From the IMG/VR virus record IMGVR_UViG_2690316131_000009: a stretch of 7,425 nt of DNA; one strand, given 5' to 3'. This document shows positions 1-687 of the stretch, piece after piece. Below the pieces are notes generated by a model. The model worked only from the letters and a program-made list of their open reading frames with translations, did not search any database and was not told the DNA's origin. Made by a program: the position numbers and the translations under genes. The stretch's first letter is position 1, and every line of letters begins with the position of its first letter. The DNA comes from a virus (lineage: Duplodnaviria; Heunggongvirae; Uroviricota; Caudoviricetes).

Positions 1-63
1 CCTAAATAGGCTGATTCGATGTGTTTACGGGAAAAAAATCGGCCCAGATCCGCGAAATTTTAA

Positions 64-687
64 TCAGCGAGTCAGCTTGGGAAGAAATGACCTGCTTATT
101 CGCACCTTCCATAACATATTGACAGCAACACGCATCCGCTCTTCCAGCAACAAGCGACTGAACATGTGCCCTTCATTTTTCAGTTTTATCTTTAACAAAC
201 TCTCACTCATATGCAGGCGTAACGCAATCGCACCAAGCGTCCAGCTTGCTGATATATCTGTCTGAATTATCGCCCTGACTTTGGCACTTATACTGGATAA
301 ACATCCACTTAAAAATAATAATATCCGTTCATCTGATTCAAACAGCGACAGGCATGCCATCATAAGAAACATATCCGTGGTATCTCCGGAAAATCTCTGG
401 CTGGTAATTAAAGCCTCAGCCAACGCAGGGTTGTTGGGTTCCAGTGACAGATAAAGCGGAACGTCAGTCAGATGAGTTCTTGTCAGCTTATGCTGAATTT
501 CCAGATATTGACTTACTATGGAATGGTTTATATCGAAAATTTTAACTTTGCCATAATGCATAAGGAAAAGCGCCCTGATGCATTTGGTGGCCAGAACGAC
601 TGAGCCGGGCTTAAGTGACAACGTATCCTTTTCAAGAAAAATATTAATTGGGGAGCAAACCATGATAACTGAACAGACAACAACCAT
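64..687 (-). CDS. AraC-family transcriptional regulator, AppY/YdeO/GadX-like; C-terminal second HTH appears missing or frameshifted (possible pseudogene)
   Basis: 207-aa ORF. N-terminus MVVVCSVIMVCSP resembles the AppY/YdeO N-terminus as I recall it. C-terminal part (LHMSESLLKIKLKNEGHMFSRLLLEERMRVAVNML) looks like the first HTH of an AraC-type domain, but the ORF stops about 15 aa later without the second HTH. AT-rich, rare AGA/ATA codons. ATG at 687..685 with weak SD. Confidence 0.75.
   Translation of the reverse strand: MVVVCSVIMVCSPINIFLEKDTLSLKPGSVVLATKCIRALFLMHYGKVKIFDINHSIVSQYLEIQHKLTRTHLTDVPLYLSLEPNNPALAEALITSQRFSGDTTDMFLMMACLSLFESDERILLFLSGCLSSISAKVRAIIQTDISASWTLGAIALRLHMSESLLKIKLKNEGHMFSRLLLEERMRVAVNMLWKVRISRSFLPKLTR

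Follow-up and report, generated by a model that had tools for sequence, protein, structure and literature searches.

Probable insertion of an ISKpn26-like element into psrA, an AraC-type prophage regulator gene, at the end of a draft contig

INTRODUCTION

Why does an AraC-type regulator gene at the left end of a prophage contig stop shortly after its first helix-turn-helix (HTH) motif? The window analyzed here is the entire 7425-bp draft contig CYDD01000110.1 (assembly GCA_001284925.1), the left-hand 110 nt of which belong to a multicopy repeat. Its minus strand carries, at 64..687, a 207-aa chimeric ORF composed of 192 residues of PsrA, the AraC-like “prophage-encoded secretion regulator A,” and 15 residues encoded by an insertion sequence (IS), WKVRISRSFLPKLTR, with the stop codon (64..66) within the IS. 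The native 5′ part of psrA (111..687, minus strand) comprises codons 1–192 and one additional nucleotide, and specifies the N-terminal domain together with two elements of the AraC-type DNA-binding domain, HTH1 and the linker helix.

The initial annotation of this locus, made from the sequence alone, had recorded the early end of the ORF together with a second ORF on the minus strand (2..112), and had proposed that a single-base indel near 109..112 shifted the reading frame, leaving a decaying or repurposed regulator with its second HTH continuing in the other frame. The second ORF does exist; it is 36 aa long and encodes MEGANKQVISSQADSLIKISRIWADFFPVNTSNQPI. The position of the break was also approximately correct, as it falls at 110/111, but no single-base indel is involved, because 1..110 is the terminus of an IS. 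We consider that an IS5-family (ISKpn26-like) insertion sequence transposed into psrA, with a probability of about 0.93, and set out below the evidence for this reading and the alternatives to it.

RESULTS AND DISCUSSION

The first 110 nt of the window are the right end of an IS5-family element

Positions 1..110 (plus strand) correspond to the right (3′) end of an IS5-family ISKpn26-like IS and are 100% identical to positions 2501–2610 of locus L003, the right end of a copy annotated as “IS5-like element ISKpn26 family transposase.” In two annotated examples, the matching stretch sits 38 nt downstream of a gene with this annotation. The window thus starts 38 nt past the transposase stop codon, and the transposase gene, on the plus strand and convergent with psrA, would lie past the left end of the contig. 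When the first 112 nt were searched alone, they were matched in 2373 of 5426 complete Escherichia coli genomes, at up to 43 places per genome and on both chromosomes and plasmids (1802 places on plasmids).

The terminal inverted repeat of the IS occupies 95..110 (plus strand) and reads CTTATTCGCACCTTCC, the reverse complement of GGAAGGTGCGAATAAG. This 16-mer was found at both ends of the L003 copy and at the right end of a second copy, in L002, the left repeat of which differs by one base (GGAAGGTGCGAACAAG). In other words, both the terminal repeat and an end identical to known copies of the ISKpn26-like IS5-family element are present in the window. The L003 copy has ATAG at each flank. The ISKpn26-family copy in L002 (1415–2610; E. 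coli 730V1) has no target-site duplication, its flanks being CCAAG and ATAG, and adjoins a truncated ISKpn3 transposase gene, and is thus an example of a rearranged copy.

The psrA homology ends at the outermost base of the inverted repeat

Comparison of the window with an intact allele and with IS copies placed the discontinuity at 110/111, and the homology to psrA gives way precisely where the IS inverted repeat has its outermost base. The intact allele reads ...GGGAAC-ATAA-CATATTGAC where the window reads ...CACCTTCC-ATAA-CATATTGAC; in a longer view of the junction, ...CATGCCGGGAAC ATAA CATATTGACAGC in the intact allele corresponds to ...TTCGCACCTTCC ATAA CATATTGACAGC in the window. In gene orientation, the frame crosses the junction as AAT ATG TTA T|GG AAG GTG, such that 192 native codons and one base are followed by IS codons. 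The presumed target site is ATAA (111..114), which would be one copy of the expected 4-bp duplication, with the partner beyond the IS and off the contig. Elements of the IS5 group prefer the target YTAR. ATAA agrees with this preference at three of the four positions and keeps the TAR core; the first base is off, as it is in the ATAG that flanks the L003 copy. Gene inactivation by this kind of insertion has been documented for acrR::ISKpn26, with a 4-bp CTAG duplication (PMC8023600).

The event that we propose would have proceeded as follows. The IS would have entered psrA of a lambdoid prophage at the ATAA site, after the first base of codon 193 (110/111), splitting off the last 45 codons, which encode the entire second HTH. 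The remaining ORF would then run 15 codons into the end of the IS before stopping. The whole IS and what remains of the 3′ part of psrA would lie beyond the contig end, and the contig probably breaks at its left end because the IS is a multicopy repeat. At the opposite end of the contig (6918..7425, minus strand), an IstB/DnaC-like ATPase gene is truncated (Pfam IstB_IS21; the 168-aa called product reaches the end), and both bounds of the contig are thus probably formed by sequences repeated among the prophages of the strain.

A megablast search with positions 1..1200 against the 5426 complete E. coli genomes returned hundreds of prophage matches, and all of those listed begin at query position 110; in none of these genomes was the psrA–IS junction spanned. 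Neither this junction nor the predicted left junction (5′-...CATGCCGGGAACATAA|GGAAGGTGCGAATAAGTTCC-3′) was present in the GTDB species-representative genomes, a collection unlikely to include the strain.

Only a single IS–gene junction is visible, and at such a junction a simple insertion and an IS-mediated deletion or rearrangement of the downstream DNA look alike. In the latter case, deletion or relocation would have affected the psrA 3′ end along with the tRNA/late region downstream of it. The visibility of one junction only would be consistent with this, as would the L002 copy without a target-site duplication, which shows that rearranged copies exist, and the psr allele of L010, which is deleted from almost the same point into a TerB region. 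However, nothing positively points to such an event here, and it is a variant of the transposition reading with the same consequence for the gene; we regard it as unlikely, and have counted it within the probability given above.

Much less probable is an assembly artifact, in which the assembler produced a chimera of psrA and an unrelated IS read, the gene being intact in the real genome. The contig is a short-read draft that ends in a multicopy repeat, and 110 nt of IS is close to a k-mer or read length, as such an artifact might produce. However, the join coincides precisely with the final base of the inverted repeat and lies by a TAA-containing site like other IS5-group targets, which is not expected of a random chimera. 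In addition, a contig from a second assembly, GCA_001285885.1 (L005), shows the identical junction and covers another 11 nt of the IS; three SNPs in 1727 nt separate it from the window, so it is not simply the same data. With de Bruijn assemblers, moreover, a short-read contig that ends approximately one k-mer into a repeat is the normal sign of a true repeat boundary, and the end of this contig has that signature. Taken at their weight, these observations make an artifact highly improbable and favor the transposition of the IS into psrA.

The interrupted gene is an O157-type psrA allele

Positions 111..760, comprising 577 nt of coding sequence and 73 nt upstream, are 100% identical (650 of 650 nt) to ECs_1087 of strain Sakai and its upstream region on prophage Sp4 (L008, 16605–17254). 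The same stretch is also 100% identical to L006 (3501–4150) and to many O157:H7 genomes. At the protein level, all 192 native residues match those of WP_000261909.1, which PGAP annotates in O157:H7 as an intact helix-turn-helix protein of 237 aa. A 2026 paper identifies psrA as ecs1087 on Sp4, encoding a prophage-encoded type III secretion regulator (PMC13502914).

Two points of annotation concern the intact gene. The Sakai annotation of ECs_1087 starts later than that of PGAP (195 vs. 237 aa), which accounts for the many 195-aa entries in the databases. Furthermore, reviews put psrA (z1789) on O-island 50, whereas PMC13502914 gives ecs1087 on Sp4. No psr-like gene was found by tblastn in the potC-integrated prophage of Sakai (Sp6; L009, 1540001–1590000) or of re-sequenced EDL933 (NZ_CP008957.1; L012, 1630001–1680000). 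This prophage carries espX7/nleL, espN, and espK, and after Q only a truncated TerB gene. The discrepancy between z1789 on O-island 50 and ecs1087 on Sp4 may derive from the original EDL933 prophage assembly.

The second HTH is missing from the window in every frame

Intact PsrA has 237 aa and two HTH motifs, and the segment that follows ...NML, CSRHGYGQAVAEKCGYSSWSYFISVFHRYYGFPPDRYVSRQGLDY, is the true HTH2; the C-terminal end of the intact protein reads ...LLLEERMRVAVNML-CSRHGYGQAVAEKCGYSSWSYFISVFHRYYGFPPDRYVSRQGLDY. The full-length 237-aa frame is not kept in the window, in which it diverges after residue 192. The two-HTH domain of AraC/XylS proteins (approximately 100 aa, recognized as HTH_18 or as two HTH_AraC matches) is present in the intact allele of L001, with Pfam HTH_AraC at 3.5e−13 (two stretches) and HTH_18 at 1e−9 over residues 155–230, and is absent from the window product. 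In the 207-aa product, Pfam matched HTH_AraC at residues 141–171 only, below the threshold (E = 0.046; 14.3 bits vs. a cut-off of 26.6), and did not match HTH_18. The early end of the ORF after the first HTH, as initially annotated, was thus borne out, in that HTH1 alone is kept. The NCBIfam alignments of the window product (YdeO and GadX models) likewise all end at residue 192. Judged by its domain content, the window product is a truncated derivative of an AraC/XylS family member and not a complete member. The regulator was accordingly described rightly as not intact: it is a disrupted AraC-like prophage regulator that has lost HTH2.

The way in which HTH2 was lost differs from that first proposed. 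A single-base indel near 109..112, with HTH2 continuing in the 2..112 frame, would account for the early stop and for the start of the second ORF at 112, but 1..110 consists entirely of IS sequence and does not resemble psrA. Searched with blastn, the actual 137-nt 3′ segment of psrA gave chance-level matches only, anywhere in the window; with tblastn, all matches of the true 45-aa C-terminus to the window had E ≥ 0.88, and none lay within 1..130. When the three minus-strand frames of 1..690 were translated, none contained VAEKCGYSS.SYFISVF. The peptide of the second frame had been thought to resemble HTH2, but it had no Pfam match at E ≤ 10, and BLASTP did not align it with the true C-terminus even at E ≤ 100. 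The 36-aa ORF is fortuitous, lying on the antisense strand of the IS end, with an ATG (112..110) that exists only because of the junction, two of its bases coming from psrA and one from the IS; the window contains 86 ORFs of at least 30 aa, and an ORF of this size is thus unremarkable. The single-base frameshift was rejected, since three-frame translation, tblastn, and blastn were all against it. The comparison with intact orthologues that the initial annotation had suggested confirmed that the regulator is truncated, but showed that the homology stops at an IS boundary and not at a frameshift.

Relatives of the truncated product are mostly full-length proteins

When 5.8 billion proteins were searched with the 207-aa product, the relatives found were mostly 237 aa long and contained both Pfam domains, and no homologue in this set aligned over more than 192 of the 207 query residues (93%). 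In the alignment, intact relatives with 37–99% identity all continue after RMRVAVN(M/L)(L/V) with VAEKCGYSSxSYFISVFHRYYGxPPDxY, and the IS-derived 15-aa tail occurs in none of the aligned relatives. The exact 207-aa protein is WP_173571826.1, “AraC family transcriptional regulator [Escherichia coli],” which is on record for two contigs only. It belongs to a cluster of 2285 members, the representative and most widely seen listed members of which are 237 aa long. In the phage collection, the only psr allele found was 91% identical and located in phiSTEC1575-Stx2k.

A natural family of short single-HTH AraC-like proteins that ends at this position, with the gene intact, might be supposed from the RefSeq name of WP_173571826.1, but this was rejected, because the homologue search, the alignment, and the cluster look-up all gave 237 aa as the norm and the tail of the protein is IS-encoded.

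Other alleles of the psr family are broken as well, two of them within approximately 15 bp of the insertion site. The allele in L010 (176–880) diverges after GTTGCTGT (then N), into the region upstream of a TerB gene. In the allele of the metagenome contig L011 (1870–2529), the similarity is lost after GTTGC, where unrelated sequence begins. Frameshifted forms of the psr family are represented by P0011 and by P0015 and P0017 (188 aa, with 37 member sequences together). These broken alleles could mean that the regulator decays recurrently, or that the AT-rich TGTAAATATGTTATG stretch is a hot spot for recombination or insertion.

Probable consequences of the insertion

Proteins of the AraC family contact two adjacent major grooves of DNA via two HTH motifs, as in the MarA and Rob structures, and activation needs both. 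Since HTH2 is wholly missing, the truncated product should not bind DNA or activate its targets. PsrA and PsrB are prophage-borne AraC/XylS-type regulators that induce GadE and YhiF, by which LEE type III secretion is repressed; PsrB and PatE additionally activate acid-resistance genes, and deletion of psrA raises secretion (PMC10877973, PMC8565820). If the window product behaves as its domain content predicts, the PsrA-dependent activation of gadE and yhiF, and the resulting repression of the LEE, would be lost from this copy. In a LEE-positive strain, the insertion would be expected to lessen the PsrA repression of LEE type III secretion.

A sigma-70 promoter-like site (ATGATA-16-TATAAT; 10 of 12 matches) lies at 723..750 (minus strand), 36 nt upstream of the psrA ATG; it is a weak indication, being a consensus match in a scan in which the number of such sites was not above shuffle expectation. 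A terminator-like hairpin (838..821) lies upstream of it. Because the promoter-like site remains upstream of the ATG, the fusion product could still be made. We also considered that the 207-aa fusion (N-terminal domain, HTH1, and tail) acts as a dominant-negative or anti-activator of PsrB/PatE/GadX-type regulators, or that the IS alters the transcription of the downstream tRNA/late region. Either is very improbable; if true, the insertion would have rewired the control of acid resistance and type III secretion rather than simply knocking the gene out.

The case of psrA::IS brings together a known regulator, a known element, and a textbook mechanism, and only the particular junction is new. It nevertheless bears on annotation. 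WP_173571826.1 is named an ordinary AraC family regulator in RefSeq and carries no pseudogene flag, whereas it is actually the product of a psrA::IS fusion pseudogene. More generally, what looks like a “frameshift” at the end of a contig can turn out to be the boundary of an IS.

Comparison with known systems

The element and the gene can each be set beside a well-described counterpart. The window shares 110 of 110 nt of the right end of ISKpn26 (IS5 family, IS5 group; 1196 bp), including the 16-bp terminal repeat; it contains this terminal 110 nt only, whereas the transposase gene, the left end, and the duplication would lie beyond the contig. As in Sakai Sp4, psrA in the window is located downstream of the RusA and Q antiterminator genes of a lambdoid prophage. 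In contrast to the Sakai gene, it is interrupted after codon 192, and its product has 15 IS-encoded residues in place of the last 45 (HTH2).

The resemblance to Sp4 does not extend to the rest of the prophage. From 111 to 860 the window matches the O157:H7 Sp4-type sequence perfectly, after which the identity collapses; from 861 onward, the backbone is not Sp4-like. The remainder of the contig, which encodes a DUF1133-type Q, RusA, DUF968, and other proteins, is closest to prophages of O26, O103, and O45 (96.5% identity over 87% of the query). On these nucleotide comparisons, the prophage is a mosaic, with an O157-type psrA allele in a non-O157-type backbone. A ParD-antitoxin/ParE-toxin pair at 3571..4196 (called products of 85 and 99 aa, matching Pfam ParD_antitoxin and ParE_toxin) is encoded on the plus strand, whereas the neighboring prophage genes run in the other direction.

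Among regulators, PsrB (z2104) and PatE (z0321) of EHEC belong to the same AraC-like family and occupy the same kind of prophage location as PsrA. PsrB is reported to be 90% identical to PsrA (PMC10877973, PMC8565820), and the O26/O103-type allele in L001 is 91% identical over 192 residues. The best NCBIfam models for the intact protein are YdeO (4.7e−31, residues 1–229) and GadX (2.3e−25), but the intact allele scores below the equivalog cut-offs of both (108.3 vs. 348 bits for YdeO, NF007407, and 89.3 vs. 500 bits for GadX, NF007432), and the window ORF reaches 71 and 49.4 bits, respectively. Scores so far under the cut-offs indicate that PsrA represents a distinct paralogous group and is neither YdeO nor GadX. 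The nearest solved structures to the intact protein are the DNA-binding domain of GadX (3mkl; 1.4e−18) and Rns. YdeO, GadX, and AppY, the acid-resistance regulators encoded on the chromosome and on DLP12, act in the same GAD regulon as PsrA (PMC10877973, PMC8565820).
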